Source: Paecilomyces variotii (lineage: Eukaryota). Taken from it: 64,000 bases of DNA. Shown here piece by piece: positions 9,142 to 46,042 of this stretch. The notes beneath the pieces are model-generated. The model was not told the origin of the DNA and made no database searches. It worked only from the letters and a program-made list of their open reading frames with translations. A program made the position numbers and the translations under genes. The stretch lies in assembly GCA_004022145.1 (NCBI GenBank), contig RCNU01000005.1, one strand, 5' to 3'. Positions within the stretch are counted from its first letter, which is position 1; the number at the start of each line of letters is the position of its first letter.

Positions 9142-9550
9142 ACGTAACTGGTAAGCGAGCGACGCAGCACTGTATTCCAGAATCAACCCTTTTTGCTACT
9201 TGGATATCTCAGCAACCACAAGTTATAGTAATATAATATTTAAAGATAGTATATAATAGTACTTTATCTTTAATAGATAAATTAGAGAAGTTTATATAAG
9301 CGTTGCTTCTTTCAGTACTAAATATCACACCCGTATTCTTGATATTTCTACTGGACAGTGTAAGGCAAACAATAAAAAATGTAGAGAAAAATATTGTTAG
9401 TCTTATTTACCCTATAATATATTATGTATGAAAGATTTTATCTTTACAATCTCTGGTTGCTGAGATATCCAAGTAGCAAAAAGGGCTGATTTGTATGGAA
9501 TACAGTGCTGTGTCCCCAACTTACATGCGTCGCTCGCTTACCAGTTACGT
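9142..9550. mobile_element. pogo/Fot1-like MITE with TA target duplication
   Basis: TA|ACGTAACTGGTAAGCGAGCGACGCA... and ...TGCGTCGCTCGCTTACCAGTTACGT|TA. The inverted repeat continues internally (CCCTTTTTGCTACTTGGATATCTCAGCAACCA / TGGTTGCTGAGATATCCAAGTAGCAAAAAGGG). Confidence 0.85.
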
Positions 9551-18308: not shown

Positions 18309-18713
18309 ACGTATTCCCCTGCGCAGCTCTGTATTCCATACAAATCCGCCCTTTTTACTACTTCAATATCTCAGTAACCAGAGATGGTAAAGATACAATA
18401 ATAAATATATAATATAGTATAGGCTAAATGAGGCTATTGATAACTTTTTGATTTTTTTCTTCTTAACTTTACTCTATAAAGTGAAAATATCAAAAATACA
18501 GCTGTAATATCAATACCGAAAGAAGTATTGTTAATATAAGCTTCTTTGCTTTATATATTAATGATTAAGTACTATTATATAATATTCTTAAATTTTGGAT
18601 TATTATAGCTTGTGGTTGCTGAGATATTCAAGTAGTAAAAAGGGCGGATTTGAATGAAATACAGAGCTGCGCAGGGTACTTGCATCCATGCGCAGGGTGC
18701 TTACCGAACACGT
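18309..18713. mobile_element. MITE related to the 9142-9550 element, opposite orientation
   Basis: Inverted repeat CCTGCGCAGCTCTGTATTCCATACAAATCCGCCCTTTTTACTACTTCAATATCTCAGTAACCA / TGGTTGCTGAGATATTCAAGTAGTAAAAAGGGCGGATTTGAATGAAATACAGAGCTGCGCAGG. The AT-rich core aligns to the reverse complement of the 9.2-9.45 kb core. Confidence 0.8.
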
Positions 18714-18860: not shown

Positions 18861-21317
18861 AAACTATCAAAACCTCATCGAACCTATCAGTTACCCATCA
18901 AGAACCCCCTCTAACCTCCTGCTAAGACCAGAAGCATTAATGGGGGTATACATGCGGGGAAGGGGTACCCAGGCCCTCACAGGAAAAGGGAAATGTACAA
19001 GAACAAGCAAAAGAAAAGAGAAATAAATAGTTACTTACCTACTGGTGCAGAGCGGACCTTTCCAACACAGCTGTCACCCAATTAATCCGCCCTCGGATTA
19101 GCGCTATCATACGAGGGCTACCTGTACCAGCCTCCTCCACAGCATTCAGCACCTGGAGGGGACTGATTAACAGGCCCTCGAGACCCTCTTCGTCAAGCAG
19201 GGCTATATCTTCCCGGGTCGACCGGATGGTGAGTCCGGCCGCGTGCAACGCCTGAAGGTAACCCGCAGGATATGTCATTTTTGCGATATCTACAGAAAGG
19301 CTATACGCCCGCGAGAGTGGGATAAAGCAACTATTTATATATGTATTGAATACCACTACTGACAAGCGAGGCGACCCCTGATCATCTAACACTGCCAGAT
19401 AGGGAAGGAAGTATCAGTGAATACAATGTCATTTGCCGCTTCTTCTCTTACAAATTATCCTACATCAAGTTTAACCACATAGCTTCTCGTCCTTATACTA
19501 TCTTTGTCCTAGCATATCCTCATTTTCTGTCATTTTGTGGCTTTATTCATATATGGCGAAGAAAAGTGGAGAAAATAAACATGAAAGGGTGTTTTAGGTA
19601 GTTATACCATCGGCTGGTTTCTTATATCGTCCTGCTAGCCGGTAGCTCATAAAACTGCTGTAGACCATTGTGCAGCCGCGCTTCAGCTTTCGCAGCTGCA
19701 CAGCCCGTCCACCATCGGGAGCAGATACCTATGGAAGGATATGTCACTGGATCTCGATAATGGTTGTAGTTGTACGCTGAGGAACGACGACCATTACAGC
19801 GCTCGCACCGAAGAGGCCCGGCTGTTATCCTCGTTTCAGTCGCTGGATAGAAAGGCTGGTCCCGCTCAGTTGGCAGCCTCGTGATGCTCTGTTTGTGTTC
19901 CTGTGTCTCCCAGGTAGTCGCGCAAGTTTTGTCTGTGGTACTGACAGCTGCATTTGAGGGAAGTAGAGATTTGCGCCTGAATTTTCCAAGTTAATGCTTC
20001 ATCGAAACCGTACAGGAAGTGACGGATTATACCTGCACCGAACCCAGAGCCATATACCATAAAAGAAGTGCATTGGTTAGGACAATCTAGATGATGAACC
20101 AGCACGTAAGATTGGCCTTTGACACAAGTGAATCTTGTTTTGAATTCAAAGTATGGGTTTTGTTTCAAATATAATCTTTAAGACACCTAGCACGGCAAGG
20201 CATAGCTGAAACAATTATCTATGGCCAAAAATATATTCCAAGATATGCAATAGGAGACAAGGGCGCTTCATGGTAGAGTGTTATAAATTATCTTAGGTAT
20301 CTGACCGGGCTGATATGATAGATCATCGGCGAGGTTAATATTTTTTGTTACATATGGCTGGAAAGTGCACGTAGATTTGCTCAGCTAACCATGAAGCCTA
20401 AAAAGTCATCATTCTTGCTGTTTAACCAACAGTGATTTAGTTAAATACAGATCTGAGATACTTGAATATTGGATCGTCAGGCTGAAATTGAACAGGTCAA
20501 CTTGGCCTGCCGTACCTGAAGCATTCAGTATCACGATTGGATGTATAGGTGACATTATAACGTGCAAACCTCAATAGTGTAGCATATTTCCAGGATTTGC
20601 TGAACCCTTCTCAGGATTGTGATATACTGAACATTCATAAAAGTTCCAAGTTTAATATAAATTTTCTGGTAAACTCAACCCCACCCTCATAGTTCTAGCG
20701 TGAAACCTAGCCAGGCATTCAGTAGGCACCAACCAGTTCCTCGTCCAGGCTTTGTCCCAGTATGCCATCCTTCTGCTTTTATCAAGGCCTGGATCATTGT
20801 TGTGGCCCTAAGGAAGAACCAAGTGTTGATCAATCAGTATCGGACTCAACTATTGGCTGACCGCAAGCCAACTGCGTTGGAATTCCCCACCACACTGTGC
20901 CATTAGCATGAGATTTAGACGAACGTCCCACTCAACAAAGGGTTTCATTGCAACAAGTTAACTGATTGGAGTGTCCATTGGGAGCTTTTCGGTGGAGCGT
21001 CCATGCGCAGCACTGGTACAGGGAATAATAAAGTACCAAAAAAGGTAGGAATCTGATATGAATGATGATCCACAAATGAATGACATGGGGCCAAGACATC
21101 CAATAAGTGAATAGATTGCGGTCGAGCAAAGAGCTCACTGCAAAAAAGGACCAAAAATGTCCACTGTCCTGTCGTATGTACCATACAGGCTTATTGGTCA
21201 TGGCAAGTAAGTGGAGCTATCAAATCACCGATGAATTGTTGGCCTCAACCACTATAACCAACTATAACCAACGCCGGTGAACGCAGTCGCCCAAGACTGA
21301 ACTTTACGAAAGCCACC

Positions 21318-22655
21318 ATGAGTGCCAAATACCCATATCATCCTCCATTTAAAAAATTTATAATCTCAACACCATATTTATCAAGAAATACTACTTCAGC
21401 ATATCAGCAAACACAGTGCCACATTCTCCCCCGCATTCCTGTCCCGATGAGGGCCAAAAAGCAGAGACAGCCTTTACAAAGAGCGACTGTGATCAAAACG
21501 GCCCAAGTTAAGCCAAAAGATTCACTTGGGTCCTTGGATAGAGGCGTCCTTATCAAAATACAGAAATGCCTAAGTCGAGCTCGCCATAAGAGTACCACCG
21601 AGTCAGAAGCCAAAGCCGCCCTTTTCGTTGCCCAGAAGCTGATGGCCCCATATAATGTCTCCCAAGCGGATCTAGTGACCAACAGTGATTATGGAAGCAA
21701 AGCTCAATATGGAGGAGTGAGCAAGGTGGAAATAATCAACGTTAAGAACCGTACCAGACGTGTGATTAAGAAGGCATTTGTGCACAAGTCGGCAAAGGCT
21801 ATGTGTACGTTCTTTGATTGCCAATGTTTTTCGACGGACTACGAAACATCCATTGCTTGGTCATTTTTTGGTATAGCGGAAAACACGGTCACAGCGGCAA
21901 TAGCGTTCGAAATGGCGCACAATAAGATCCTGGACTGGGCATGCTCCTATAAGGGCGGTTCGGCCACGTTCAGCTACCGCGTCGGAGTCGCTGATGGGCT
22001 CGTCTCCATGGCCAACTGTGAGAAGAAAATCGAACTCGAGGCGGCAAGAAAGAAAGAGTTAGATATAATAGCCGCCAAGGAACGGAAAGCGGGTATGGAA
22101 CGCGAGCGCAAACTTCAGAGGCTCCATAAAGGACCTTCACTGGCGTTAGACATTGGTGAATCAGATGGCCAGTCAGAGGACGAAATGCCTGGCTTCTTGG
22201 ACATAGACAGCATGTCCGACGAGTCTTACGGCTCTCCAGAGTCGATAGACAATCTCAATCTTAATACTAGAGGAGCACTGGCCGACTTTAATGAGAATGA
22301 TGAGAATGTGGTCGATCTCACGCGCAGCGTGGAAGTCAACGTTGACAAAATTATCAAGCGGGAGTCGCGCGAAACCCATGATTTTAACAGCATCCCTTCC
22401 CTTTCGGTGAAGCAGAACCCTTCAGATAACGATTCCTCGTCTGTTAAAAGCGAGGATATGTCGAACTCGCCGTGGATGTCCGAAACGCAGCTAGTACGTT
22501 TTCGCGCCACATCGGTGCAGGTTGCAGACGAATACCTCAATATCAAGCTGCGTATGGGAAAGACACGCACAGTGGTCACCCGCAATTACTCTGCTTATCG
22601 AGAAGGGTGGAAAGATAGTGAAAAGATTGATTTCCGTCCGCGCAGGTTGGAATAA
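21318..22655 (+). CDS. DUF2786-domain protein, intronless (true start may be 21447)
   Basis: IKIQKCLSRARHKSTTESEAKAALFVAQKLMAPYNVSQADL resembles the DUF2786 helical motif. It is followed by FFGIAENTVTAAIAFEM, SYRVGVADGL, a coiled coil, an acidic region and AYREGWKDSEKID. Confidence 0.75.
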   Translation: MSAKYPYHPPFKKFIISTPYLSRNTTSAYQQTQCHILPRIPVPMRAKKQRQPLQRATVIKTAQVKPKDSLGSLDRGVLIKIQKCLSRARHKSTTESEAKAALFVAQKLMAPYNVSQADLVTNSDYGSKAQYGGVSKVEIINVKNRTRRVIKKAFVHKSAKAMCTFFDCQCFSTDYETSIAWSFFGIAENTVTAAIAFEMAHNKILDWACSYKGGSATFSYRVGVADGLVSMANCEKKIELEAARKKELDIIAAKERKAGMERERKLQRLHKGPSLALDIGESDGQSEDEMPGFLDIDSMSDESYGSPESIDNLNLNTRGALADFNENDENVVDLTRSVEVNVDKIIKRESRETHDFNSIPSLSVKQNPSDNDSSSVKSEDMSNSPWMSETQLVRFRATSVQVADEYLNIKLRMGKTRTVVTRNYSAYREGWKDSEKIDFRPRRLE

Positions 22656-23619
22656 TCGTACATATTGAGCCCTCTGATCTGTGCCTTACCCAGCCAGAGT
22701 TCCAGCTCGTTAAATTCTCCTGTCCAGACTCTGGTGAGTTCCCTTTGCCATCATACTCGGATGTGTCAGTATGCGGCCGTTCCATACAGAATAAACAACA
22801 ATAGAATATGCAATGGTTGGTACACAGTCTCTGTTCTCCATAGACATCTTCGCTAGGAAGCTATGGTATTTTACCTTCAGTGACTGGCGACACCCGCAGG
22901 ATTGAGTAGTGCAGTAACCGGTTAATAGCTTTTCGCTTCTCCACTGAATTATTACAGGCGTGAGTTACGCTATATGCCCAATATATCACTACTGGATGGG
23001 AGCAATTAATGCTGCTTGTGGACTGATGTGGGGGATTGTAGGCAAATTAGATTCTAGTGAGAAAAGCTGTGGCTCAAAAGACTGGGATCAAAAAGCAGGC
23101 AAACAATCGCTTTCAAACAAGCTAACATTTTCCCTCCGTTGGTGCATCAACGTTGTACTTTAGCCCCATAATCCATATTACGTGAGAGTAAGACATAGTT
23201 CCCAGCTAGAATGAAAGGGATAGGAACGAAAGCTGTGTGAATGAAGTGCATCTGCGATGGGTTCTCGAGGGATCCGCTCACCTCCCGGTGGCATAAATTG
23301 TGATCGATTATTAATTCCCTTTCGTATACTCCAATAACATTCAGAAGTGCACATGATGTGGAGCCAAGTCAACAGTGCGGTAGTGATGGATCTATTGCAG
23401 CGTATAAAAAGGGATGGTACAGGTGCAGACACAACGAGTTGTTCCCATTAAACTAATATGGCTGGCACAACTAAATGAGGCTAGTAACATAAAATTCAAG
23501 ATATAAAAGCACTCAACTAACACTGTCGAACATCAAACTCTTCCAATCTTTGATACTCACACAAGAATTTTCTAAATCAATTCACGGCTACCGGTGGCGC
23601 ACTCCTTTGTTTCTCAAAT

Positions 23620-23999
23620 ATGCACAATAGATCGCCGTGCGCTCACACTCCAACCCAGGGTAAGTAGTATGGCTCCTCACCTTCCCCTTCAATGCTAAAT
23701 CGGTCATGACTATTATAGCGCCTTGCCTCACACAACGCATTCCAGAGCTGCTTGAGCAAGCGTATCGCGAAGCTTATCAATCTCACCAGCTCAATCGGGA
23801 AACTCTCGCGTGCAATGAACAACTAAACCGCGAATTGTCGAAGGTTCACAATGAAAACAGAGACTTACAGGCAAGGAATCAACGGCTTGAGTCCCAAAAT
23901 AGGGTGTTGATGTGGCAAATACAAAACCTCGAATGCCAGCCGATGCGCCTGCAACTTTCTTCCCATAGCGCCACTCCGGAAAAGGGGAAGTCGGCATAA
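23620..23999 (+). CDS. Small coiled-coil hypothetical protein, probably two exons
   Basis: ATG at 23620, GTAAGT..CTAA..TAG intron, heptad-like LNRELSKVHNENRDLQARNQRLESQNRVL. Confidence 0.45.
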
Positions 24000-25038
24000 T
24001 ATCATCTTTCAAGGTGCTTTTCTCAGACGGTCTTAGTGGAAGTAGCACAAGTCTAGTGATATTATAATATTCACATCAAGGCTCCCATTTCAACTATGAA
24101 TTCCAAAGCTATCAATCTATTCTAGGGCCACCTTCCAATGGTTGCTGTAGAGTAAACCCTCTGAGCATCCAACTTCAGAAGTGGTGACTGGGCTGTACTG
24201 GTTCAGATATTTCAAGACTACATGGTCATCTGTGTTGCTGTACTTAGCTCCCAGGGAAGAAGCGCCAATAAGGAGATATTATTATCTACACAGTAGAATA
24301 GCTTGCTTCTTATTATATGCATACCGCGGCGTACGAGATCTCTCAAGGAAAATGATTCGTAAATACCTTGAACAGAGAGTAAGGTTGCACGGCACAGAGT
24401 TTCAACCTTTCGTGAGAACAAAGGACCAGTTTCCGAATCTCAGGTGGAGAGGCGGGCGGGTAGACCCAACGAATGATTGAATCTCCCATTGATTACCTGC
24501 CCTCCAGAACCAATGCCTCTTTCCAACGTAACCCACTTGCTCCGCCGTCATTATGTACACGCTTTGCAGATCATCAATGTACTCCATGATCCTTTGAATA
24601 GCGTGCATTTCATGGGTCTATGGTCAGCTACAATTTATTCCAGTCCCGGGGCCACCTCACGATTTCTATGTGAACTCCATTTGCCAGATCTAGCTCTTTG
24701 TCTATGTCTGCTTATTACTAAGCCGTCCTGTTGCCAATGACATTCGGCGTTCTCGGTCCACCCACCCCATGTTGCCTTGCAACGAACTACCACATTCAAA
24801 AATCATCGATAAACAAGGGTCTCATTCCACTCTTGACAATAGTGTCAACAAACTCGCCATCGAGCGGGCGCGAACTGGTCGTACTTTCTCACCTTGGACC
24901 CAGAGTCTGCATGTCCCGTACGGTAAACTCAGATATTTAAAAGTCCAGTTGTCTGAAGGGACTCTTCCACACTCAACCAATCCCGATAGATCGGAAATGT
25001 GCACGACCTTCCACGACCAATTCATACGCCCTGCCCGT

Positions 25039-25940
25039 GATGGACATATTATCTCTATTGAATAAAGACGATGATCGCAATCCTTTCAACCCTCCCTCTA
25101 CCAGCCAGCAACGGCCGACCAGTAAGAGGAGGGATGCATTTCAGGGATGCAATCATGGCGTTTTCCCATCGTACCATACAAGTCTAGTGTCCCAAAGCGT
25201 GGCATCCATGCCTTCATCAGTACTATCTGATGTCAATTGGTCAGAGGCGTCTCGTGTTGCTGTTTTGTCTGAAATGCCCCGCCGATCTACCACAACGAGC
25301 AATGTGTGCGCAGTACATTCAAGGTGGTGGATCTCAGGAGTAACCTGCCGTCCCGCGGATGATGCTGCCATTATCTATCTATCTGAATCTATCCGGGGAT
25401 CTCCTAGAATAGCTATCCAGCTGGCTTTAGGACGAGGTTATAGGTTCACAGTCAGGAGAAGAGACATGCTGCATGGATATCAACCAGAAAGGTCCTGCTT
25501 GAACTGCCACTATGTGGAATACAACTTGAGGAGGGCAAGGTAGCAGTTAGTCAGCCATGCAACCCAGAGACCCTAAATGCTAACTATCGAGCAGATATCA
25601 AGGGTCCTCATTGAACACTACTCGGAAGGGGCTTGGCCCGAAGGCCTCCATTATCATTCCTCCGCCACGACAAGTTCGGCTTGGGGACACATTCTACTTT
25701 CCTCTGGTTCTCCAGGCTCGTGAAGATACTATTGAGTTGTCTGCGAGGCTGAAGATTGATGATATCGATTCCTCCTTGGACTTTAGCAAGACCCTGATAT
25801 TCCAAAAAACTTTCTTCCTTTTGACTCCTCTGGTGTTAAACCGAGCGGGGATTTGGAGCATCGTAATCTGCATTCAGAGTCAGGCTGAATCATTTTTCAT
25901 GAGTTTCGACGTTCATGTTGTGAATTTCAGCCCTGTGTAG
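25039..25940 (+). CDS. Hypothetical protein, probably two exons
   Basis: Adjacent same-strand ORFs (MDILSLLN..; ..IIIPPPRQVRLGDTFYFPLVL..) separated by a GT..GCTAAC..CAG intron-like segment near 25540-25594. Confidence 0.45.
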
Positions 25941-25962
25941 TACAGTACAACACAGCCTCTAG

Positions 25963-27458
25963 GACATGGCGTGATTTGGGGTGTTATGCGAGGGAGGTCC
26001 TAACGGTTCAAAATACTCGTCGTTTTACGCTAGGCTTTACATTATGTGAGCCCAACATGCGACTCTGGGAGTTCGACCGTGTCGGGGCAATGGCGTCGTC
26101 CTCTTTCGACATCAACAAGGATGGGCTCCAATTTGTTTCGGCCATGCTGGGTTTTCTTACGATGAACGATGAACAGTTAGGGTATGACCCAAGCATCATT
26201 TCTACATCTGACGAAAAAAAAGCTACATTGAGATTCAACGCGATGGACATTGCGAGCGTCTTATCCTTGAAGGGCTGATGAAGAGATCTGCATGCGTTGC
26301 TGGCAGAGCTACAACTTGCTGGAAAGCCCGTCGCGAAGGAGACAAGACAAATTCACCACTTGTTATCAAAGATTAATGGCAATATCCAAAGAGAGAAGGA
26401 GAGTGGAAACTTTTACAGGAAGCGACGGAGAAAGAGGTGGTTAATGTAACCAGATATTACTATCATGAACCGTTCGGGTGAATAGAGAAATCGACAATAT
26501 TCGCAACAATGTTCGGAAGAAGTTAGATGTAACGGAGTCCACGAACTTTTGACCAATGCGATATGAGCTGCTCTCAGCTGCAAGTGGCACAGCGGGAATA
26601 GAAAGAGCCGGTCGCTCCACAAGCACGACCAGCCAGAAAAGGTCATCTAGCCAAGCCGACGCAATACTACCGCCAAAGAAACGCCCTTGCCCAAGCTCGC
26701 CTTCCAAAGGTGTGCGTGATGCCAATATACAGGATAGGGTACATCGTCGATTTATTGTCGAAGATTATGACATACCCATATATAGAGCAAGCTCACGCGT
26801 CTCGCTACTACATGCACTTGAGAATTGCATAGAAGGTATGAGTTTTGTTCATGTGCTATAGTTCATCACTAATTATTGAAGGATATCAATCTTTGCATAT
26901 GAAAGCAGGGCTTTTACAGGGTGACATCTCGACTGGCAACCTGATCTTGAATGAAGACGTAGGGAATCCGTCATGGTCAGCGTTCCTCATCGACCTGGAT
27001 CTATCTATCGAGGAGCAACGAGAACGAGCATCTGGAGCTAGAGGGAAGACAGGAACGAGGGCATTCATGGCAATAGGTCTACTTCTGGGAGAGCAACATT
27101 TATTCAGGCATGACCTCGAATCTTTCTTTTGGGTACTCTTCTGGATATGTATTCACTACAACGGTCCAGACCAAGGGGTTGGGCCAACTGACTTAGATTG
27201 TTGGAACTATGAGGATGATGGAAAGCTGGCTCGATCTAAGCAAGGTATAGTTGCTGGCGAAGAGGATTTTCTTAAAATTGCAAGTGAACTGTTCTCACCA
27301 TACTATCAAGCATTGGTTCCTTGGGTCAATAGGTTACGCTGAGTGGTACAGTATTCCCGGGGGGTATGCGGAGAAAGAATGACGATACGCATCTTTATGG
27401 TCAGATGAAAAATACCCTTCAGGAAGCGGTTAGTGATCCGAAAGTGTTAGCACCATAG
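25963..27458 (+). pseudogene. Fungal-type protein kinase (FunK1 / Pkinase_fungal) pseudogene, 5'-truncated
   Basis: RRFTLGFTLC..MRLWEFDRVG, LGYDPSI, VAGRATTCWKA, LVIKD*WQYP (stop at 26374), LLQGDISTGNL, FLIDLDLS, TGTRAFMAIGLL, HDLESFFWVLFWICI. Frameshift at an A-run near 26215. Confidence 0.88.
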
Positions 27459-28325
27459 GTAATATTTAATCAGCGAGGCATTATCATTTAGTAAAATAAT
27501 ACAGTTTTAACATTTTCATATTCAGATAGAATCAATGTGCTAGCTTATCAGCTTCTTTTCCATAAGCAATGTCCGTACTACTGCTGAACATTTTCTTAGT
27601 CATTCGAAAAACCCAGTGCTCAACCAAGCCACTAACTAACCTTTAAAGAGGACGCTAGATGTGTCAAAAGTTAGGCTTGACAATACCCATACACAGTATC
27701 TAGAAAACGTAATACAACCCGTAACAGAAATTTACAACCTGTATTTTTGGCACGTGAATTTCTTGTAACGTAATGCATGTTTTGTGGCGGTGCAATATTT
27801 TGTATTGGGAGGAAATATTATATACTGTAATATATTCATGTAAAGCATTCAGTCAAATGTGTTTCACTCCATTATGAAGTTGGTATCCAATGGAATCTTA
27901 CTTTACTCATAGGCCAGGTCAGATCCCATAGATTAAACAGTGTCATTTTTTATATGTACAGTATATTGGCCCGTCTTACTGGACTGTGTTATGCTTCCTA
28001 TTATTCCTTAGGCACTAGCTGTTTAAGTGCCTCGATTCTAACGCACCTGTTCGTGCTTCAGAGTACTTATCACGCATAGAGCATTAGCGCTTTCCCTTAG
28101 CATTATTTCAACTCTTTTCAAGCCCAGGGGAGAGTTCGGTGTCAATGTTATTGTATCTGCTTTCAGTTACTCAATACGTCTCCATTAGCAAAGCAAAACT
28201 TTATATACTAGGCGACAACTCTAGCGGCCACCAACACTACAAATCTTGTAAATGAAACTTGGTTTAAACAGCAAGCTTGTTCACCTATAAAGGTAATTAT
28301 ATACAATCTATCCATTTATATACTC

Positions 28326-31300
28326 TCACATAGGCTTCAATCGGGTCGAACGCCGCGATGGCGGTCGTATGACGGACCAACGTTTCCGAAGGGAAATCGC
28401 AGACCGAGCTGGGAATCGCTTTTGAAAGGCTGACGTTACCGCTTCGAGAGTCGCCAACTTCCGCATGAGTGTCTTCAGTAACTTGTCCTCTTCTTGACTG
28501 TAAGGCCTAGTTTTCCGACCTGAGGTTTGGAAGTCCGTAGATCTCTGGCAAGCCTTGGCCGCTTGCTCCTTAGCTTTAGCTCTTGTTATAGGCCCTGTTA
28601 GTCCCACGGCCTCCTTTATCCTGTCTTCGATAACATGCATATCTGAAGAGCTTTGCGTTGTGAAATCCGCTTCCTCTATTAGCTTCGATTCGTAGTTTGT
28701 CAAACTTAGTGCTGGCTTATCGTTCAGAGAAGTCGGAGACGGTGGAGCGTGTTCAATGGTTATGTTGTCCGTCTCTGGTACAGCCACACCTTGAGAATCC
28801 ACACCTCCTAGGGCTAGGTCTGCGAAGGGCTGTTGAAGCGGAGTATTACCCTCGATCTTCTCAGTAGCATAGTTGCTTTCCACATGCACCCCTGGACTGC
28901 GTGCATAGGGCTGTTCAGTTTCCTCACCCGGCTGGCACAAGAGAGCAGACGGCGTCTCTAGAATTCGTGGGTCGATGGGAACCACACCGAAAGTGGAGCT
29001 TGTTATTGAAGGGCTTGAGCAGCCGCTCAAGCCATCGGTACGATCAGGTGTGTCAAATGTGGCCGATCGAGCCTTCTGGCTGTTTTGGCTTACAACAGGC
29101 AAATCCAAGTTCCGGCAGTCAATAACGGCTTGCCAAGCCATTCCTTTAAGGCTCTCTTGATCCTTATCTTTCTCCTGAGCAGGGACAGACGTGATAGCCC
29201 TCGGACGCATTGCGGGGGGTTCCCAGAAAGTAATCTTCAGTTCTTTCGTATTAGTAGATGATGGTACGGAAGGTTTTTTGCCTTGCTTGCGCGGGCGTTT
29301 CTGCTGCATACAATGATCTCTGTCTGAAGTAGACTCCTCGTCCTGCATCGAGGACAATCGTTTCTTGTAGGCCTTCTTGGATCGCACACAAATGGTTTTG
29401 TGGTAATGGTGCACATCGCGAAGGTGTCGGCGGTAGTCCTGTTCCTCGGTAGCAATGTGGTTACAGGAAGGGTCAGCGCATTCCGATGGCCATGATTTCC
29501 GATCAACATGCTCCTCAAGATGCTCTCTCAGCTCTGGGCTTCGGTCAAAAGCTCTCATCCTGCAGGCCGCAGGAAGCCGGTCATCCCACATGCATTCAAT
29601 ACAGTATCCGGCACGGATGGTGGTATGGCGATACACCATCACCTCGTAGTGTTGGCTGGTCATCGAGGGGAGGTGTCCCGCACAATGCTCCTCAAACTCA
29701 GCACTCTTTCCATCATGGAAGGTGTAGCATTCCCAGCAATACTTGATCTGTTGAAGAGGAATGTGCAAGTTTCGAGCAGATTCTCGTTGAATACAAGAAT
29801 GGATGTGCCTGCTCCGCAAGGGCTTTTCCATGCTGTGGCATGTTAGTGGAGGATCAATATAGGGAAACAGTGGGCGGCTCACGGTTCCAATAATTTACGA
29901 CAGCTAGCAACGGGGCATCGCTTTTCCACAGGCTCCTCGCCCGGACGATAGACCACGTCAAAATCACGAAGACATTGGGTAAAGAGATCCTTCACCACAC
30001 TGGCTTTTTCGTCAAAAGAAAGTGGCTCGTTGGATGACATGACCGCCGCTAAACGGCCTAATTCAGGCATGAGCTTGCACAGCGCCTGCTTTTCTGCACT
30101 CTGCTCAATATGATCCGGGCGTTCGCGGCCCCTGGTCAGGATTTTCCAGTCCCGACGACTCTGGACCCATTGACTCTGGTATTTCTGCAACCTGCTCGAA
30201 GAGATCCTTCTCTTAAGGACGCTATATTCGCGCTTTGCTCTTCTGATGTCATCATCTGACTGTGCTTGCTGAATTTTCGCGGCTTTGGCGACCAAACACG
30301 GGTCTTCATCGACCTTCTCTTCCTCTTCTGTAGGTAACCGGCGAGGGAGGCCATTCTCGTGAAATCGGTCGTAGCCTTGAAAGTAGTCAATGTGAGTATG
30401 ATCTGCGGCTCGGCCTCGTAGAGCATTGAACACATCCACGCCGGAACAGTTGGCAAGATAGTCATTTCCGTACGTAGCTTTAGACCTATGCGTAAGAATT
30501 TGAGCCACGAGAGCCGAGGAGTATTTATCTGCGCGATAATTTAGCTAAGCTCTCATATCAGGTGAAAGAAAAGCATGAACCAACCTTGGACAGCTTTTCC
30601 TAGCTCGCGGCGCATCGCATGTACCGTTGCAGTAACAAAGTAGCCAGCATTGACAAGGATATTACGTAGACCCTCTTGATATCTCTCCTTAGTCAACGGC
30701 TCCTCACTAACCTTTTCGGCTGTGACGCGCCTTACAATACATCGGTCTTTGGCTTCATCATTCCATCTAAGGACCAGTTCGTCTTCTCCTTCGGGGATTC
30801 TTTGCTCAAAAATCTCCTCTGGCTTGGAGAACCCAAAGAGAGCATTATCTGCAAGAGCTAGTGCTAGGAGGAACAAGGCTCCTGAGTAGATAGGTTCATT
30901 GCAGTCCCAAATAGCAGTACCAAAGCTGTTCTCGTTAATGACCATTCCAAAGCTGGTGATGGTGATAGCTACATACACTGTATTCTCGGGGTCTTTGTTG
31001 TTCTTGACATACTGTTGGTCAAGCCGCCATCCGACCCTCCAAGGAGCATCATCGGTACGAAACAATACAAGCTCAATATTCTGGCTACTGTCAGCATTTG
31101 GAAGCTGAAGTGCAGGCATATTGGAATCCGTACTTTGTAACGAAGCCCCCGTCCGGCTCTGTCTGCTGATGCAGGTGTGAAAGAGGACACTCTGGCACCC
31201 GTGCATAGGAACTGAAGAGTAATGAAGTGAAATTGGACACGATACCTTCCAGGCATGAAGAATGGATCATCTGTTGCCCAGAAAGCGATCATGGCTCGCT

Positions 31301-31915
31301 CAAAGCTCGAAAGCTTGAAAGTGTGCTTCGGCCTTTTGATCACTGATAGGAACCCCTCTTGAACTAGATCATGCTCTATCCACTGCAATGATCAGATACA
31401 TGGCCCTCGAAAGGTGAATCTAACTCACGCTGTAGAGATCGGCCCGGTCATGGGGGGAAATCTCGTTCCCTGTCAGAAAATAGAAGCCTGGGACGAACTC
31501 TTGAGCCCAAATCAAAGTCGTGTCCTTGGTCGGTCGTCCATTTGGAGCAAGTCTGCCGTTAGTAGACTCAACATGCCACCGGATAAACTCTTTGAGTTCC
31601 TCTAGTGTTGGCGCCGGATGCCCATCTCCAACCTTATGGTCTTCAGGCATATCTTTCTCCTCCTGAAGAAATCTAACGAAGTCATGGTGAGAAGAACGAC
31701 TCCCTCTTAGAGTATATAGAAACTTACTCCTCATACCTCCGCACTTTCCCTGCATATCTCTTTTTCGTTTTTGGCGAAGCTCTACCCCTTGTCCTTTGGG
31801 CATCTTTCTGTTGATGAGCTTTCGCCTCATAGCCTCGCTGTTTACGGAGTTCACGGCGAGCTTTTCTTTTCTTTTCATCCTGCTCGGCCTTCAATGAAGA
31901 AGAGCGTATAGCCAT
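28326..31915 (-). CDS. Starship captain: DUF3435 tyrosine recombinase with C2H2-like zinc fingers and a C-terminal Myb/SANT-like domain (about 7 exons, roughly 1,090 aa)
   Basis: Candidate catalytic residues in order: CTGAR (R), YVKNNKD (K), TVHAMRR (HxxR), QILTH (H), GNDY (Y). Also FLLALALADNAL and VVYRPGEEP..CPV. Canonical introns (e.g. 31727-31673, 29882-29833) join the ORFs in frame. Confidence 0.92.
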
Positions 31916-32475
31916 TATCAACCGCTGAAATGTAGCTAAATAAATGAGTTTAGAAAGAGTACGAGAGAAACGATTGTAGAAGGCTGATGGGAAATGAGAT
32001 GAAAGTGAAATTGTCCTGGGCGAGTAGGGCATATTTATATTCGCAATTGAAGTGCGATACCTTTAGTTCCTTTTTAGCAATGACCCCTCATCACTTGCGC
32101 CAAATGCTGATCGAAGCTTCTTAGTGTCAGACATAGTGTGCGGTGACTGAAAAAGATTCCAGCTCTTGTCTTCGTGATGCCCTCAGATACATGCGGGTTG
32201 GATAGACTGGATCAATTAGTTTGTACACGGTTTAGAGAGCTTCTGTTGGTCACGTGAGTGATGACACAGAGAGGACTGGCATTGCCCCGGGATCACTCAC
32301 TGAGTTGAGCCAAAGCAATCCGGGAGCGACCGGAGCTGCGGTGCGTGCTCACTGAGCAATCAGTGAGTGGCCCGGAGCGAACACGGAGCACTCACGTGCT
32401 GCCCTCACAAAAGCGGCGGCATCCGAATCGGGTAACAGGACCCAACTCGCAGCAAAACAGTTCACTTATACACTA

Positions 32476-33246
32476 GTAAATGATGGATTACAAGCTCGCC
32501 AGGCGCTTCTTCCAAACAGCTCCGTATCGCCGCGGTTGGATACCATCAGGCTTCCAAATGTCGATCTTATCAGTCCCGAATTCGTTGATTCAATCATCAA
32601 ACACCATATCCCGCCTGGGGGTTTACAACTTCGAGATGCTACAGACAGCTCTGCTGCGAAGCTTTTGATGACCCCGATGCGGGATGCGGACATCAGAGGG
32701 CCGGCACTACGAGATGCTCATTCCAAAGCTGGCTCTTACCTAGCCTGGAGATTTCTGGCCGACCTCATTGGTCTTGAGGAAGTCACTATCCGCCATGTTC
32801 AAGGCAACAACACCATAGGTCACCGACTCCGTGGAGAAGAGAAGACGCTGATTGTGGCGTTGATGCGCGGCGGCGAGTCCATGGCTTTCGGCATCAACGA
32901 AGTCTTCCCGAAAGCTCAATTCTTGCATGCCAAAGAGCCGAATGATATCAAGCGACACCATCTGGAGGACAACGTAACCGTTATTCTGGTCGACTCTGTC
33001 ATTAACAATGGCAATACAGTTGTGAAGTTCGTGGAGTCCATCCGAGCCATCCATGCAATGATTCGCATCTTTGTTGTTGCTGGTGTAGTCCAGGACAAGG
33101 CAGTCTCGGGGTGTGGTCCCCTCAAGGCACTTGCGCGGACTGCTGAAATTACAGTGGTAGCTCTTCGACTTTCTAAGAACAAGTACACGGGTAGCGGTGG
33201 AACTGATACAGGCAATCGCTTGTTCAACACGGCTTACTTACCCTGA
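32476..33246 (+). pseudogene. 3' remnant of a uracil phosphoribosyltransferase-domain gene, 5'-truncated at the Starship junction
   Basis: LIVALMRGGESMAFG, VILVDSVINNG (PRPP-binding loop), GGTDTGNRLFNT. The frame extends upstream through NDGLQARQALLP with no in-frame ATG between the junction and the ORF's TTG start. Confidence 0.75.
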
Positions 33247-33329
33247 AGCTAGTATGGACGACTTATGTTTGTTGCTTCAGTGCTTGGGGATGAACTTTTC
33301 TGTCGTGTTTTGAGAAAGGATGATTGTTC

Positions 33330-33383
33330 AAGTACGGCTGAGCGGATGGGAGGTCCTATTTTCCACATCCTATGGTTGTATGT
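33330..33383 (-). pseudogene. 5' half (nt 1-54) of a 5S rRNA gene
   Basis: Aligns without gaps to the first 54 nt of the intact 5S copies in this window with 6 mismatches, all transitions. Similarity stops after ..CCGTACTT. Confidence 0.88.
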
Positions 33384-35635
33384 GGTGGATATCTCCTTGA
33401 AAAGAAATATACTCCACAAGATAGCTAAAGATCTAGTCTAATTTCTCAGCCGTCTCCGTAGGATGAGCTGTCTTTGTAGCTAGTTATCTCATGGAACACG
33501 CGAGGAGGCATCGGCATCTACAGTATTTGAATAAATGTCTAACCGAAAAACAAAGGCCATGTGTGCCATCTCTCTTTAGTCTTCTCATGAATAGCTATCC
33601 TTAGGAATCGAGTCAGTTTCTTCGATCAGAGCACCTCACATGTATAGTTCAGCTTTGTAACTGAAAAATACAGAAAGAATAAGTGAAGTTAACATAGACA
33701 TATTAGCAACTAAAGCAATATAACAGCCCAAATAGTTACCTCACTGAATCTCAATTGGCTAAGACAGTAGGGCTTATGAGACGGTTATTCCTATAGTTTA
33801 AGAGCCTCGATTGAGAATAGTCATTATCAATACCGCTATAATATGAGTTGTTTCACACCATCAATGATATATAACAAGACCCTCATGCAATCCTTCCAAG
33901 TTAAACCGTCTTCACATTACTTCGGTTCAAAAAAGCATACTCCGTCGTATAATCTTTGAGGCGACCTCTAGTTTGTTCCCTTCTTTGCTTCTTCCCTCTC
34001 AATTCCAAGCCAGACGAGCTCTGTAATATCCTGGAGCAACATATCTTTAATAAAGCCAAAATCGCCCTCTCCTTCTCCTGGTTTAGTCAAAAGCAAAGAT
34101 TCGAATGGGATAATTAAATCCCCGGTGTCATCTTGACTTCATGGCCGTTGACATAGTAACTGAGACGGTCTGCGTTGCTCCAGTTACAATATGCCTCCAC
34201 CGTCATAGTTGGTTCTTGGCCGTGTTCCCCTTTTCTGCTCAAACCCCTCTGCGCAATGGGGTGGTAAGTTTTGGTTGCAACATCTGTCTATAACCTAGCG
34301 TTGATGTGCAGTGATATACACATGCAGTGGGCATGGTCTCGCATGAACCCAAGATTTGATTTCGATATTTCCAGAACCTCGTTTGATATCAATTGTGATA
34401 CCCATTCTCATCCGTCCTGATTCTTGTAATTACCAAGTAATGTCTCTTTCCAGTTGTGCAGCTAGCTGTGGAATGATCAACTTCTAGAGCTACCGTTGGA
34501 AATTGTCCTTCTTGCCGTACTGGCATCCATGCCCGATCCGCTTGTTTTTTTCCGGTCACAACCATCGATGCGGGTGGCTCCTATGAAGCAGGTTCGACCT
34601 TTGACATTCATTTGAGCGGCAAGAACTGCAAGCATGGCATCGAATTCGCCAGCAGCTTGTTCGTGAGGCATTTCTAGGACTGCAGGTGGAAAGGTAAAAA
34701 AGCCAAATCCGGAATAGTTTTTCTAGAGGGAGATATAAAGCTCACATTACTCTTTATCAACAGGACGAAACGAAGCCCCTTTCGAGGGCACGCAAGAATG
34801 TCTGGTAGAATGAAAAGAGAAGAAAAATCCTCCAGGTCCTGGAGGAGTTCTTATTCCTCCGTATTCTCGCCGTATTCACACAAATTTGAGGAGTCTCCGG
34901 AGGGGAATTAGCATCCATCCGCCTACAGCTATTCATTCCCTGGGCAAAATAGTGAATGTGTATGCGGAAAAGCGGACTGTTATAGGTGCCTACCCGGCAT
35001 GCTGCAAGGCGATCTGTATCTCCAAGTCAGGTACCCGAAACAACAGGTATGCAGTCCTACTGGCAGGAAACCAGCAAACGATCCGTAAAGTGGTTTCGTC
35101 AAAGGAGATGCGCGGCAGGTTGAGATGTGTTTTAGAAGTATCTGACTTTTCAACTCTTCAGCCGGGCATTGGTTAACGTAATCCAGTTCATAGCATTGTA
35201 AAGTTCGGAAGCTTTCCTCGTGCCCGCAGTACTTGCAAGTTGTTGTATTGCTGACTCGAGAGTCAATGCGGGATATCACGTTGGAACTCTTGTTCACTAA
35301 CATGTTTCCTAAATGTTGGTCTTCCTCGCAGTTCTGGTAATGTGGCAATATCCCCTTTCCTCTTACTATCTAGCATCTTAGTATCCAGGATAGGTCCCTA
35401 CTTCGAGTTGGACAGGCAGCATGTTAGCGGCGTGGTATCGATAAATCCGCTTATCATTGCCTCGACTTCTCAGCGTCACCACAACATAGGCTAGACTCTT
35501 TGTCTGCATGAAAGCTATTGTAGAGTACTCTGTCATTCCCAGGTATTTTTTTTTTCTTTTTTACAGAGACAATAGGAAATACAGCACTAGACTGATTCCC
35601 CGAGAAGACCCCTAAACGTGAGCAACTGTATCCAT

Positions 35636-38600
35636 TCAAAGACAGTCTAAATCGAACCCCATGAACGAAACACGGCCAGATAGATGGCCAAGAACCAGTG
35701 TACCTGTACTACCTGCGATGCAGGAAGATGAAGGGCGGTATTCAGGAGGAAGCCACAAACTTGGTGTTCCCTTCAAGCTTACCCATCGACCCTCTAGAGA
35801 AATCTCAGAGCGATATTCATGTTGCGGGCCATGACCAATATCGACAGATCCAATGTTAAATATGCCACGATCTGTCTCTAAGTATCCATTCTGTGGGGAA
35901 AACCTTATGTTCCTTATTATGGTGTCAAAGCCAAGGGTCAGCCGGACAAGGCCCGAAGTGATATCCCACAATTTGACAGTTGCATCATAAGAAGCTGAAG
36001 CAAGCAGCTTGCCATCGAGTGAGAAAGCTACTGCATTCACCGTTCCAGTATGGCCTCTAAGGGTTTGTTTAATAAGACCCGAAGTGATATCCACCAGTTT
36101 GACTGTTTTATCAGAAGACGCTAAAGCAATCAATTTGGTATGAGGTGAGAAAGCTACTCCTCTCACTTCATTTTCTGAACCATAAGAGATTGCAAAAGTT
36201 TGGTAGATGAGTCCTGAAGTAGTATCCCACAATGTAACAGTTTTATCAGAGGTTAAGGCAAATAATTTGTCATTAGGTGAAAATGCCATAGAAATCACTG
36301 AACCATCGTGGCCCTCAAAGGTTTGTTGGACAAGACCTGAAGTGATATCCCATAATTTGATAGTGGTACTCCCAGGAGAGACTGAGGCAATTAACTTGCT
36401 ATCGGGTGAGAAGGCTATTAGTAGCCCTCCTAATCGATTGCGCCTGCCTGTAAAAGTCTGTTGGACAAGGCCAGAGGTAACATCCCACAGCTTAATAGTA
36501 TCATCAAAAGAGGCTGCAACCAATTTGTCATTAGGCGAGAAAGCTACCGCATCCACCGCAGTGCTGTGACGCTCAAAGGTCTGTTGAATAAGGACTGAAG
36601 TAGTATTCCATAGCTTAATAGTGTTATCCCAAGAAGCTGAGGCAATTAATTTGCTATTGGGAGAGAAAGCTATTGCAAACACAGATTGAATATGGCCTTC
36701 AAGGGTTCGCAATATAAGGCCTGAAGTGGCATCCCATAGCTTGATAGTTCCATCAGAAGAGGCTGAAGCAATGAATTTACCGTCAGGCGAGAAAGCTACC
36801 GTAGTAACCACATGATTGTGGCCCTTAAGGGTCTGCCAGATAAGGCCTGAAGTGGCATCCCATAGCGTGATGATTCCAGTAGCAGAGGCTGAAGCAACCA
36901 GTTCGCTATCCGACGAGAAGGCAAGCCCTCCCATTGACACATCGTGGTCCTTAATAGTGTGCTGGATAAGACCTGAAGAGGAATCCCACAGTTTGATAAC
37001 TGTTTGAGTTCTTGAGGCGATCAGTTTCCCATCAGGTGAAAAAGCCACTTCTCTTACACAATGGTCATGGCCTTTAAGGGTTTGCTGGATAAGGCCCGAA
37101 GTGACATCCCATATGTTGATGATTTTATCGGAGGCTGAAATGACCAGTTTACCATTGGGTGAGAAAGCTATTTTTCTCACCCAATCATTATGTCCTTCAA
37201 AGGTTTGTTGAATAAGGCCCGAAGTGGCATCCCACAAGGTAACAGTTTTATGAGAGCCTGAGGCGAGCAATTTGCCGTCAGGTGAGAAAACTACCCTTTT
37301 TAATTCATCTTCTGGGTGATGACAGATTTCAAAAGTCTGCTGAATGAGGCCCGAAGTGGCATCCCACAGCTTGATAGTGTTCCCAGAGGCTGAGGCGACC
37401 ACTTTGCCATTAGGTGAGAAAGCCACCGCAAGCACATCATAGTGCTCAAGAGTCTGCTGGGCCGCACTCCATGATGTGTCCACCTTGGGGAGCCTTCGAA
37501 TCCAATTAGGGATGTTGTCATCGAACATGCATCGGATACGTGATTTTTCCGGAGCGAAAACAAGAGCCGAACAGTATAACTGGAGAGGCGCGCTATCAAT
37601 TACTGATATGCAGTATGAAATAAATCGCTTAGCATCGTGAAGAAATGCAGATAGTTCAGAGTCATCCTATAACAATTCCAAGACAATCAGCTCTATAACT
37701 ATTACTAGTTTTTAAACTTAGGACTTACCTCTGTTATCGATTGGAGAAAGCCAAGACCAGAAATACTCTCGGACACATGTCCAAGAATACTCAGAACCTC
37801 CAACCAGTGAAGGAGATGTTCTGTAAGAAAACTTTGAACAACTTCTTCATCTCGAATGCCACTCTCCTGGAGATGATAGATCCAATACCGGCAAGCATAT
37901 TGTAGTTCCATTGGTAGACAATCATGTCTTGTCTGGTCGTCGACTTCGTCTCGTAAAGCACCGGCATGAGGTAGATCGCATATATTCTTTCTTAGCAAGC
38001 GACGCATGAGTGTTAAACACTGAACAGCAACTTTTCCGTGTTTCTCCTTCCCATTAACCCAAAAAACATTATCATTTCTTCTGGGGTCGAGAAGAAAGTC
38101 TCGAAATGACAAGTGAAAAAGCCTTACGGGCTGATTTGCGTTGCCCGGTACATTCAAGACTGAATGGAAGAACTCCAGTCGACGTTCAATTTTTTGAGTG
38201 GGGATCTCCAGGAGCTGTCCGAGAGAAAGAATCGAAAGTGGACTGGCCAGGATTATAATCACTCCGACGATTTTTTGAAATTCATCGACCAGCTGTTCCG
38301 AGTCGCAGGGAGTTGCTCCGGAAAGCAGATTATTTAAAATTGGAGCATAGGTTAACTCCAATGGAGTCATATCGTTCTTCAACTCGGTCTGGAGAATGAT
38401 CTCCAGACGTTCTTGGGGTCCCCATTTCAGATCTCCAATGAATCGGCATATAGTAGCAGCAAAAATGAATAATGGAATCGCCATTCTGACAAGAGTCCGG
38501 GTAATATCCTCCCCGGGCCATCCATCCGGCAATGTACGCTCCTCTCGGATGGCAGAAAGTCTTGATTTGAAATAGACCATCAAATCATGTGCAATAACAT

Positions 38601-39807
38601 CTTCTGGGATCTCATGTAGAACTGTATCCTGGTAATCATCGGCATGGACCTGCTTGAAGCCCAAGCGGATTGGTAATTCTGGCCGGCTGGTAATGAAGAC
38701 GCGCAAGTGAACTGGGCCAGAGCTCTTGATGCTCGGTAGGAGATGCAGAATCGTGCGAATGTCCTGTTCTTCCTCACACTCATCCAGCGCATCGATTATG
38801 ATGACAAGCAATGGGAGGCCACGATCCCCACGTTGTAGTCGTGATAGTGGGTCTAAGAGAAGGGCATGAAACTGCTCGCGGAGAGACTTTTTGCCTATGG
38901 CCGGATCATCCTCAACTGCCTTCGCGACGGGAGGACCTAGGGGAGGGAATTGGCCAACTAACTGTTTCACAATCGTGGTGAAGAATCGGCTGGCATTCCC
39001 ACGGTCAGCTTCGCCTCGTTTGAAGAAGAAGCTGGCGCCTAGGCGATTTTTTTCTTTCAATAATCGAGCTACGGTCCTGGCAATCGTTGACTTCCCGGTT
39101 CCCGCCATTCCATTCAGCCAAAAGATATATTTACTATTGATATCTGCTGACCAAGCCAGTATATCATGCAAGAGCTCCGTTCGAGTTTGTTCAAGACACT
39201 CGTCTTCGTGTTGGTCCATATACGAGCCGAACATCGCTTCGTCAACGGTAAGTAGCTTTGCCAGATCGACTTTTTGGTCTATACGGACTGTAACATCGCT
39301 ATGTAGCAATCGATGTTAGCGATATTATACTATATGAAGGATAGTAGAGAAAACCAACACAAGGTCCAGCTGCAAAGCCGCGAGGAATACACGTTTGTAT
39401 CGCTCGATACGACTAACGATCTTTTCCACCTCTTTTCTCTCCAAAGGCCACTTGATCGATCGCCAGCCGAGATATCTTATGACTTTGTCTCGTTTCCGAT
39501 TCTCGTCGTTCTTTTCCTTTGGTCTTCCTGCATCCAGCTTTTCACCCAGCTTTTCTAGTTCCCATTGGCATTCCGCAATGGTGCGACTGAGCACCTGAGT
39601 CACATGGAGTTTTTGACCATTCTGTCCATCGAGCAAAGAACGCAATTTCTCCAATACCGTCTGAAAGTCTTCGACGACTTTAACCAGATATTGGATATCC
39701 TCCTTCGCATCTTTCGCTTCTCCAATATATCCCCAGCATATCTTGATGAGACTACCAGTAATCTGGATAACGGCAATGACGCTGGATGCGCTCCCTAGCG
39801 CCTCCAT
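35636..39807 (-). CDS. Fungal NLR: HeLo-like/SesA N-terminus, NACHT NTPase, ~12 WD40 repeats (HET-E/HNWD-like)
   Basis: N-terminal ASSVIAVIQITGSL..WPL, Walker A GMAGTGKST, Walker B IIIDALDEC, ITSRPE, FHLSFRDFL, YACRYW, QLYCSALVFAP, and 12 repeats of the type GH..V..VAFSPDGK..ASAS.D.TIKLWD.TSG. Introns near 39.3 kb and 37.7 kb. Confidence 0.93.
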
Positions 39808-40296
39808 GTCGAATCTCCACTTATCTCTCTGAACAGGAACAGAACTCTAAGTGGAGTGTTGTTGTCTTTTTTTTTCTCTGTCGTCCCCCGATGTCAACGT
39901 GTAAACCGTGGGAATAATGCGGCTGAAAAGCGGGGTTGTGATACTACTACTAAGACGTTGTGGCCATCAGCCTATCATTTGAAGGGAGCCGCTCAAATCA
40001 CATTTCTCCCACCCTAAGTACATCAATAACTGGTTGTCTTTGAAAGTTGAGCTCGCTAAGCGCTAGGTACTCATGTTATCAGACATAGCTGGTGTCAGCC
40101 TTGTAGTAGCTAGGTCCCATAACCGAGCTTTCTTCTGATAGACTCGAATGGAAACTATATACACAAGACCTAGAGAACTGGTCAGTACCTAATGGTAGAC
40201 TATCGTGTAGCGTATCTAGCAGTGCAATAGAGTAAAGTCCGCTCGAGATATGTTTCATCACTGTAGATCATATATAAAGAAGCAAGGTAAACAAGC

Positions 40297-40415
40297 ACAT
40301 ACGACCATAGGGTGTGGAAAACAGGGCTTCCCGTCCGCTCAGCCGTACTTAAGCCACACGCCGGCCGGTTAGTAGTTGGGTGGGTGACCACCAGCGAATC
40401 CCGGCTGTTGTATGT
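40297..40415 (+). rRNA. 5S rRNA gene
   Basis: 119 nt, ACATACGACCATAGGGTGTGG...CCCGGCTGTTGTATGT with complementary termini. Upstream TATA-like element and downstream T-run (Pol III terminator). Confidence 0.97.
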
Positions 40416-40565
40416 TTTTCTTTTTTTTGCAGTTTTATTTTTTACTTCTTTTCTTTACGTCCTTTGACTATTTCCCCTTACATAAATAACGAGCATCTAC
40501 AGTATTGTTAATAGAGGACAATATATTCCGTAGAAATCAGCAGAATCCAGTGCGGATAATCCTTC

Positions 40566-41011
40566 TGTGCGGGGTGGGACTGCATCTGATCGACGTATAG
40601 TACTTTTACTAGTTACTACTAAATTTCCTGGGAATTGACTGTTCCCAGAGACAAGCAGAGAGAGCTTGTGCATATGTAGCAGAAACTTAGTTCAAGATCT
40701 CTAACTTGTCATATCATATCGATGGGCAGCGCACAGATATTTCTCTGTGCTGTTGTTATCAGAAGAAACGTACATAGTACTTTATACTTTAAGTCAAGTC
40801 TGATAAGGAATGCTTTGACGGTCGACATTACGCGGGGTGTGACTCGACTCCAGAGACTCAGATAGAAAATTTGGGTTAGATACTATGTAAAATACAAGTC
40901 GATCAGGAGACATGATCTCCTTTGGTTCGAAGCCGGGGCTAACGTGCGATGGGTTATTGCTGTGGCTCCGAATCAGGAACTGGGAGGGGATGTTTTTGCA
41001 GAACTGAAATC
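40566..41011 (+). repeat. Copy A of a diverged direct repeat (copy B at 45783-46042), with ~205 extra bp
   Basis: Shared blocks GGACTGCATCTGATCGACGTA, TACTTTTACTAGTTACTA, TGTTCCCAGAGAC, CAAGTCGATCAGGA, GCTAACGTGCGATGGGTTATT, TTGCTGTGGCTCCGAAT, AGGAACTGGGAG. Confidence 0.9.
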
Positions 41012-45142: not shown

Positions 45143-45471
45143 GGTCATTTATTCCTTTTTGACTCTTTTTTTTTTTAGGTTGTCTCGGTTTTTGAGCAGG
45201 CACTCTTTGTTTTTTTTATTTCTAGATAATAGCAGATACCCCATGGGAGGGTTGTGTCCCGGTTCTTCGTTACTCTAATAGCAATACGCGTCTCAAATTT
45301 ATGGATTCTAAACGCATGTCACTCCTTACTGCTGGGACGATTGTATGTACATAGTTCTATTGATATCCATCTCAACATGTCCAGCCATCTAAGTGATTTC
45401 CCCTTTTCTCCCCAGCTTGGGCCTGGGACCAAAAAAATGTATATATAGCTCTATCATTAATAAAAATAACA

Positions 45472-45590
45472 ACATACAACAGCCGGGATTCGCTGGTGGT
45501 CACCCACCCAACTACTAACCGGCCGGCGTGTGGCTTAAGTACGGCTGAGCGGACGGGAAGCCCTGTTTTCCACACCCTATGGTCGTATGT
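45472..45590 (-). rRNA. 5S rRNA gene
   Basis: Reverse complement of the 40297-40415 copy, appearing identical over 119 nt. Confidence 0.97.
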
Positions 45591-45782
45591 GCTTGTTCTC
45601 TATGAGCATTGCATTATAAGATCTGTGAGGATGAAATATAATTCGAGCGGACTGTATGTTGTAACTACAATTTAACTTACCAGTTCTCTTGGTCTTGAGT
45701 ATGCTTATGATTTCCATTCGATTCCACCATGTATAGAAAGCGATTTGAAGCAGAGTCTAGATAGTGGGAATGCATTCTTGTG

Positions 45783-46042
45783 TGTGCGGGGTAGGACTGC
45801 ATCTGATCGACGTACGTACTTTTACTAGTTACTAAATTTCATGGGAATTGAATTGTTCCCAGAGACTCAGATAGCGAATTTCGGTCAGTATGTATCTGAC
45901 GGGGGAAAATCCAAGTCGATCAGGAAACATCATCTCCTTTATTTCGAAGCCGGGGGCTAACGTGCGATGGGTTATTATTGATTGCTGTGGCTCCGAATGA
46001 GGAACTGGGAGCCAGGGGAAAGTTTTTCGCAGAATTGAAATC
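45783..46042 (+). repeat. Copy B of the diverged direct repeat
   Basis: Collinear with 40566-41011 except that it lacks the segment between the two CCAGAGAC words. Confidence 0.9.

Follow-up and report, generated by a model that had tools for sequence, protein, structure and literature searches.

The window (the whole stretch of 64,000 nt that was analysed) is occupied from its left edge to position 32470 by part of a Starship mobile element on the minus strand, which abuts the 3' part of a gene for a HAD-UPRTase fusion protein (32479–33246, plus strand). A spacer of 83 nt (33247–33329) separates the stop codon of this gene from the 5' half of a 5S rRNA gene (33330–33383, minus strand), and further to the right lie a large NLR gene, two intact 5S rRNA genes and an aminotransferase gene. 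The sequence-only reading of this locus had taken the half 5S gene as the mark of a second, outer element within which the Starship is nested.

The Starship body (1–32470) was recognised from its Pfam domains and from its absence in two public sequencing runs described below. As its left end is outside the window, the element measures at least 32.5 kb. Its captain, a DUF3435 tyrosine recombinase (PF11917), is intact and contains GT-AG introns; it occupies 28329–31914 on the minus strand, with its ATG at 31914, about 560 bp from the junction with the HAD-UPRTase gene. Starships are recognised by such a captain at their 5' end, with transcription directed inward, and two companion genes typical of Starships were also found by Pfam, a DUF3723 gene that runs off the window edge (1–1389) and a ferric reductase (6633–8086). 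The captain is collinear with residues 1–1067 of the A. parasiticus protein P0122 (1067 aa) and matches it in six tblastn pieces, four of which are 94–100% identical, while the two remaining pieces (67% and 76%) span introns. No metal-resistance cargo was seen in the 32 kb adjoining the captain, and the window contains no inverted repeat of the Starship terminus longer than 12 nt. MITE-like inverted-repeat modules occur twice inside the Starship (9140–9552 and 18317–18676), with arms of 61–137 nt that are 82–100% complementary, and the contig of one of the public runs (X15) starts at about 9456, within one of these modules.

The gene that borders the Starship has a stop codon at 33244–33246 and encodes a complete UPRTase domain (PF14681, E 6.6e-41). 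Many homologues of this open reading frame, the closest included, are fusions of about 350–440 aa in which a HAD domain (PF12710) is joined to the UPRTase domain. The closest homologue, P0002, has 400 aa and is 73–77% identical; homology to the fusion begins at about nt 32479, at residue ~145 of P0002, so that the window carries the equivalent of residues ~145–400. The HAD half, corresponding to the 5' 40% of the gene, is absent from the whole window according to tblastn with six fusion homologues, and the expression "UPRTase remnant" used in the sequence-only reading is therefore correct. No close orthologue of the HAD-UPRTase protein was found among named proteins (139–445 aa searched), the best being one from A. 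egyptiacus with 66% identity, in a protein collection that includes P. variotii proteins; this absence fits an accessory gene.

Parts of the region 31500–35500 are present in 20 public runs, three of which contain 0.96–1.00 of its words, while five of the 20 share 0.76 of the query, which is the fraction that lies to the right of 32479 (3021/4001). Four runs (X15, X18, X4 and X20) were aligned to 21001–41000, with the uncovered parts in X4 and X20 disregarded. In X15 a single contig extends across 21001–36740 with 0 differences, and this run may be the source of the window. X18, which bears the same organism label as X15, has a contig of 19,240 nt that is identical to the window over 32471–40318 and then consists of 11,392 nt unlike the stretch. 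The flank is represented in X4 by one contig over 32473–32820 (1 difference) and another over 33161–33745 (0 differences), the latter spanning the half 5S gene. Both X18 and X4 have zero depth over 21001–32339, and the identity of these empty alleles to the window stops at 32471–32479. The 9 nt at this position, TTACTAGTG when read on the element strand (minus), are shared by occupied and empty alleles. These data demonstrate, at the captain-side junction, that the inner Starship is an insertion polymorphism that splits the HAD-UPRTase gene. The sequence-only reading had a Starship insert ~850 bp within the end of the outer element, and this part of it is borne out by the intact captain and by an identical flank that lacks the element in X18 and X4.

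That reading had also called the Starship "TTAC-type". TTAC is indeed present on the element strand at 32476–32479, directly at the junction, but it does not establish a target specificity, as TTACTAGTG fits other families too. A target of TTAC(N7)A is described for the Hephaestus family (PMC10104507); the inner element shows TTAC at the captain-side junction and the 9-nt overlap, while the position of the downstream A falls outside the window. The same 9 nt also contain TTACTA and A(N)TAGT, which are listed as target motifs of the Phoenix and Galactica families, respectively, in A. fumigatus (PMC12153272, Table 1), and for this reason "TTAC-type" is unspecific.

The captain is 94–98% identical to A. 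parasiticus proteins, 95% to one from A. caelatus and 92% to one from A. alliaceus. In X20, three pieces of the Starship (25536–26109, 26758–27294 and 27825–28214) show 0 differences from the window, whereas the flank at 33269–33550 differs by ~5%. An Aspergillus-like captain in what looks like a Paecilomyces host, together with identical Starship pieces beside a diverged flank, points to a recent horizontal spread of the inner Starship.

The half 5S gene was identified by direct alignment, on which the assignment rests because cmscan did not report it even at E <= 1, the fragment falling short of the full-length RF00001 model. The reverse complement of 33330–33383 aligns without gaps to nt 1–54 of the intact 5S genes in the window and is identical at 48 of 54 positions; blastn-short against intact 5S gives E = 6e-12, and a repeat search of the window recovers the same pairing. 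The sequence-only reading had seen 5S nt 1–54 running from 33383 to 33330 on the minus strand, and it was right in this. With nothing but nt 1–54 present, the fragment is a pseudogene. It has six substitutions (G7A, G16A, C26T, G30A, T32C and G37A), for which an origin by RIP was considered and discarded, since one lies in a CpA, two in a CpG and two in other contexts, leaving no clear signature. At -28 to -22 relative to the half gene there is a TATA-like box, TATATTT (33405–33411, minus strand), which emerged from a comparison of the three upstream regions, the intact 5S genes having TATATAA and TATAAT at the same upstream distance. This match to the intact copies marks the fragment as what remains of a genuine gene with its promoter context, and not as a stray copy.

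The two intact 5S genes (40297–40416, plus strand, and 45471–45590, minus strand; Rfam RF00001, 83.4 bits each) bring the number of 5S loci within 12.3 kb to two intact and one half. This assembly of three loci resembles the 5S-rich Starship hotspot of A. fumigatus. The intact pair is inverted and 5 kb apart (40290–40428 and 45459–45597, with 139-nt arms that are 98% complementary), and the same direct repeat of ~400 nt is found to the right of each (40566–40986 and 45783–46011).

The half gene ends after ...GCCGTACTT, and the bases that follow mismatch 5S from nt 55 onward, so that the break runs into the 3' flank of the UPRTase gene, just as the sequence-only reading had stated. The break between nt 54 and nt 55 coincides with the centre of the palindrome CTTAAG (5S nt 52–57), which is one of three dyads with arms of at least 3 nt among the 119 internucleotide positions of the 5S gene. 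We consider it supported that the 5S piece represents a real, old and precisely broken gene. Its missing 3' half has no counterpart in the window beyond 11-nt chance words, everything to the left of 32470 being inner Starship. A 19-nt word spanning the junction was matched in JGI metagenome contigs at three loci, and these hits were dismissed as chance, given that no similarity extends beyond the word (GC 0.49–0.65).

A complementary 5S half, which the sequence-only reading had proposed to look for, does exist in a related genome: in X4, a run that has the same locus (0 differences over 33161–33745), one contig contains 247 nt of other DNA followed by a 5S 3' half whose first base is exactly nt 55 (a loose end before 40351). 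This contig is unplaced and may stem from another locus. When the 30 nt inside the window junction are compared with those inside the X4 3'-half junction, the 7-mer ACAATCA occurs in inverted orientation at offsets 2 and 4, in the window at 33321–33327 on the 5S strand and hence within the 83-nt spacer, which this inverted 7-mer makes a candidate terminal sequence of an older element. Shuffling produced a match of that quality in 87 of 20000 cases, and 109 of 20000 random 30-mers from the window gave one as well (p about 0.005); the test was devised after the sequences had been seen. No direct repeat is visible at either of the two junctions.

The half 5S gene is retained in the three contigs that bridge the site (X15, X18 and X4), and none of the four aligned runs shows an intact 5S gene there. 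According to the sequence-only reading, an outer element would be refuted if neither a complementary half nor a second captain could be found and the same truncated 5S were present in strains lacking any insertion; the truncated 5S does occur in runs without the inner insertion, which amounts to half of that outcome. The X18 contig extends from 22 nt inside an intact 5S gene to a point 11.4 kb to the left of 32471. Repeats interrupt Logan contigs. Both ends would be compatible with a block of ~12.2 kb that has a 5S-derived repeat on its far side, although this proves nothing by itself.

X20 has a diverged version of the locus. One of its contigs (depth 14.7) contains the half 5S gene with the consensus base at 33368, 33358 and 33352 and with a change of its own at 33337, so that three of the six substitutions in the window are common to both copies and three are not. 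Since X20 also contains the half gene, the 5S break predates the divergence of that run. A second X20 contig of 610 nt (depth 34.7) joins the 3' end of the UPRTase gene (~33269) to 33955 and onward, with 28 other letters between them, and so lacks ~673 nt (about 33270–33942, judged by eye) that comprise the half 5S gene with 60 nt of left-hand and ~560 nt of right-hand flanking sequence. Both flanks of this gap are unique in the window, and the second piece of the contig is 89% identical (16 differences in 145 nt). The absence may reflect either a deletion across the junction in a relative or the arrival of the half 5S gene within a ~673-nt patch. Because of this contig, the half gene is to be seen as part of an indel in a collinear locus rather than as a clean edge between element and host. 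X20 comprises 72.7 Mb of contigs and is possibly a mixture. Two further X20 contigs carry 5S nt 1–62 followed by unrelated sequence (a loose end at 40358), and thus have a different break point.

Of the explanations considered for this arrangement, we tentatively favour one with two successive insertions, without going so far as to call it probable. A once-functional 5S gene with a TATA-like promoter context would have been split between nt 54 and nt 55, in the CTTAAG dyad, by an older mobile element that inserted site-specifically, extended leftward and had the HAD-UPRTase fusion as its terminal gene; this element would be a Starship, derelict or not. The remaining 5' half of the 5S gene would then have decayed as a pseudogene. 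The second, still intact Starship, whose insertion into the HAD-UPRTase coding sequence at 32471–32479 is shown, would have followed later and become nested in the older, 5S-targeting one. The half 5S gene, the point of its break, the truncated gene and the inner Starship with its empty allele are shown; an element as the cause of the break, its identity as a Starship and HAD-UPRTase as its cargo are inferences, each of them plausible. In favour of the outer element are the precise break on a palindrome, the reciprocal half and the inverted 7-mer in X4, the lack of a close named orthologue of HAD-UPRTase and the known targeting of 5S by Starships; against it stand the missing direct repeats, the X20 contig that lacks ~673 nt around the half gene, and the failure to see a second captain, a second end or an empty 5S site. 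The captain, the second end and the 5S 3' half of such an outer element would be invisible in the window, because the inner Starship occupies everything to the left of 32470; between 32480 and 33329 there is no second DUF3435 captain. A more specific form of the same reading, in which the half 5S gene and the nt-55 half in X4 would be the two ends of one undescribed Paecilomyces element that integrates between CTT and AAG, has HAD-UPRTase as its end gene and later offered TTACTAGTG as a landing site, appears to us rather doubtful.

The half gene may also be a 5S pseudogene truncated in the ordinary way, its 3' part having disappeared through a deletion or rearrangement unrelated to any Starship, with HAD-UPRTase as a resident gene and the inner Starship as the sole insertion. 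Such pseudogenes reportedly make up 18–83% of the 5S copies in filamentous ascomycetes (Rooney and Ward 2005, summarised in PMC5555474), and the half gene is old, with three of its six changes common to the X20 copy. The locus is, moreover, 100% identical in runs without the inner element, and neither a second captain nor a direct repeat was seen. A random deletion, however, leaves unexplained why the break lies exactly on the CTTAAG dyad, and it accounts neither for the reciprocal half in X4 nor for the inverted 7-mer, so that we regard this as an unlikely explanation, if one to be taken seriously. It is quite improbable, in our view, that 33329/33330 is no element boundary at all and that the half 5S gene arrived inside the ~673-nt patch in the 3' flank of the HAD-UPRTase gene, for example as filler DNA during break repair or as flanking sequence that an element brought with it. 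The 610-nt contig would fit such a patch, but a simple deletion of ~673 nt in the diverged X20 accounts for it equally well; furthermore, the second piece of that contig is no more than 89% identical, and the same run, which may be a mixture, also has the contig with the half 5S gene.

Very unlikely, finally, is a split of the 5S gene by a DNA transposon other than a Starship, with inverted ends of the ACAATCA type and no captain. The short inverted ends, the precise break and an unseen captain would suit such an element, but a fungal family of that kind targeting 5S is absent from the literature searched, while Starships are documented at 5S; in addition, the block would have to be at least 12.2 kb, judged from the X18 contig, and neither junction has the TTAA duplication of the piggyBac kind. 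A piggyBac-type insertion at TTAA was rejected on the latter ground.

The two-step reading that we favour has close parallels among known Starships. The lineages inserting into 5S rDNA that the sequence-only reading had invoked are published: of 222 Starship insertion sites that were curated, 23% are in 5S rDNA, distributed over no fewer than five internal positions, and the 5S-targeting Starships described there have direct repeats of 6–16 bp (PMC11162782). Voyager of Macrophomina phaseolina is a large element whose insertions invariably lie within a 5S gene and cut it in two, as proposed here; its position, 20 bp into the gene from the 5' start, contrasts with the break after nt 54 in the window (PMC9156397). 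A captain, direct and inverted repeats and empty sites are on record for Voyager, whereas none of these was seen for the putative outer element. The host of Osiris navis (Enterprise family), Aspergillus fumigatus, belongs like Paecilomyces to the Eurotiales, and this element fragments 5S rDNA in a 5S-rich region, a situation similar to the present one (PMC12153272). The type element of the Enterprise family targets a palindrome (PMC11162782), as would be the case for the CTTAAG break.

Within Paecilomyces itself, Hephaestus and Pegasus have been shown to move, and 33 Starship haplotypes from six families, Enterprise among them, are recorded (bioRxiv 2025.02.28.640899). Nesting has likewise been reported in this genus, with Hephaestus inside Pegasus (PMC10104507; bioRxiv 2025.02.28.640899). 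A 5S-targeting Starship or a nested 5S Starship from Paecilomyces is not described in the main texts of the literature searched. As 5S targeting, nesting and transfer between genera are all published for Starships, the phenomena discussed here are not new in kind.

Truncated 5S genes ending near the middle, referred to as 5'-half pseudogenes, have long been noted in the Eurotiales and are known from Aspergillus nidulans. The ascomycete 5S pseudogenes summarised in PMC5555474 resemble the half gene of the window in being 3'-truncated and in carrying substitutions. They differ from it in that the summary presents them without a mechanism, while here the break falls on a palindrome and a reciprocal half is present in a related genome. 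If an element with two such ends existed, many of the 5'-half pseudogenes of the Eurotiales would be scars of Starship integration. With a real outer element, the added value would be modest and consist of the specific position between CTT and AAG and the possible link to these truncated pseudogenes.

Should the outer element prove real, the locus would show in nature how one Starship can become the insertion target of another whose site preference differs. It would also tie one position in the 5S gene, the CTTAAG dyad at nt 54/55, to integration and suggest how 5S pseudogenes come to be truncated. Irrespective of an outer element, the window documents the inactivation of a HAD-UPRTase gene by a polymorphic insertion, and the captain of the inserted Starship has a near-identical counterpart in Aspergillus section Flavi. 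Paecilomyces is a genus in which both transposition and horizontal transfer of Starships have been shown at the bench.

Some neighbouring genes deserve mention. Between the half 5S gene and the first intact one lies the large NLR gene (35636–39846, minus strand), which has a PigL_N-like N-terminus, a NACHT/NPHP3_N domain and about a dozen WD40 repeats with a periodicity of 123–132 nt in the DNA. NLRs are frequent companions of Starships. Judged from its depth in X20, the NACHT part may be present there in several copies. To the right of the 5S genes there is a gene for a serine-palmitoyltransferase-like aminotransferase (50863–52821, plus strand) of a 634-aa type with identities of 88% in Rasamsonia and 81% in Talaromyces; its class-I/II aminotransferase domain (51562–52644) shows 100% identity to a protein of Paecilomyces variotii, which places the window in this species or in a very close relative. 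A second aminotransferase of P. variotii, which has the usual length of ~677 aa, is 75% identical to the copy in the window, and the latter may be a paralogue that forms part of an accessory or metabolite cluster.
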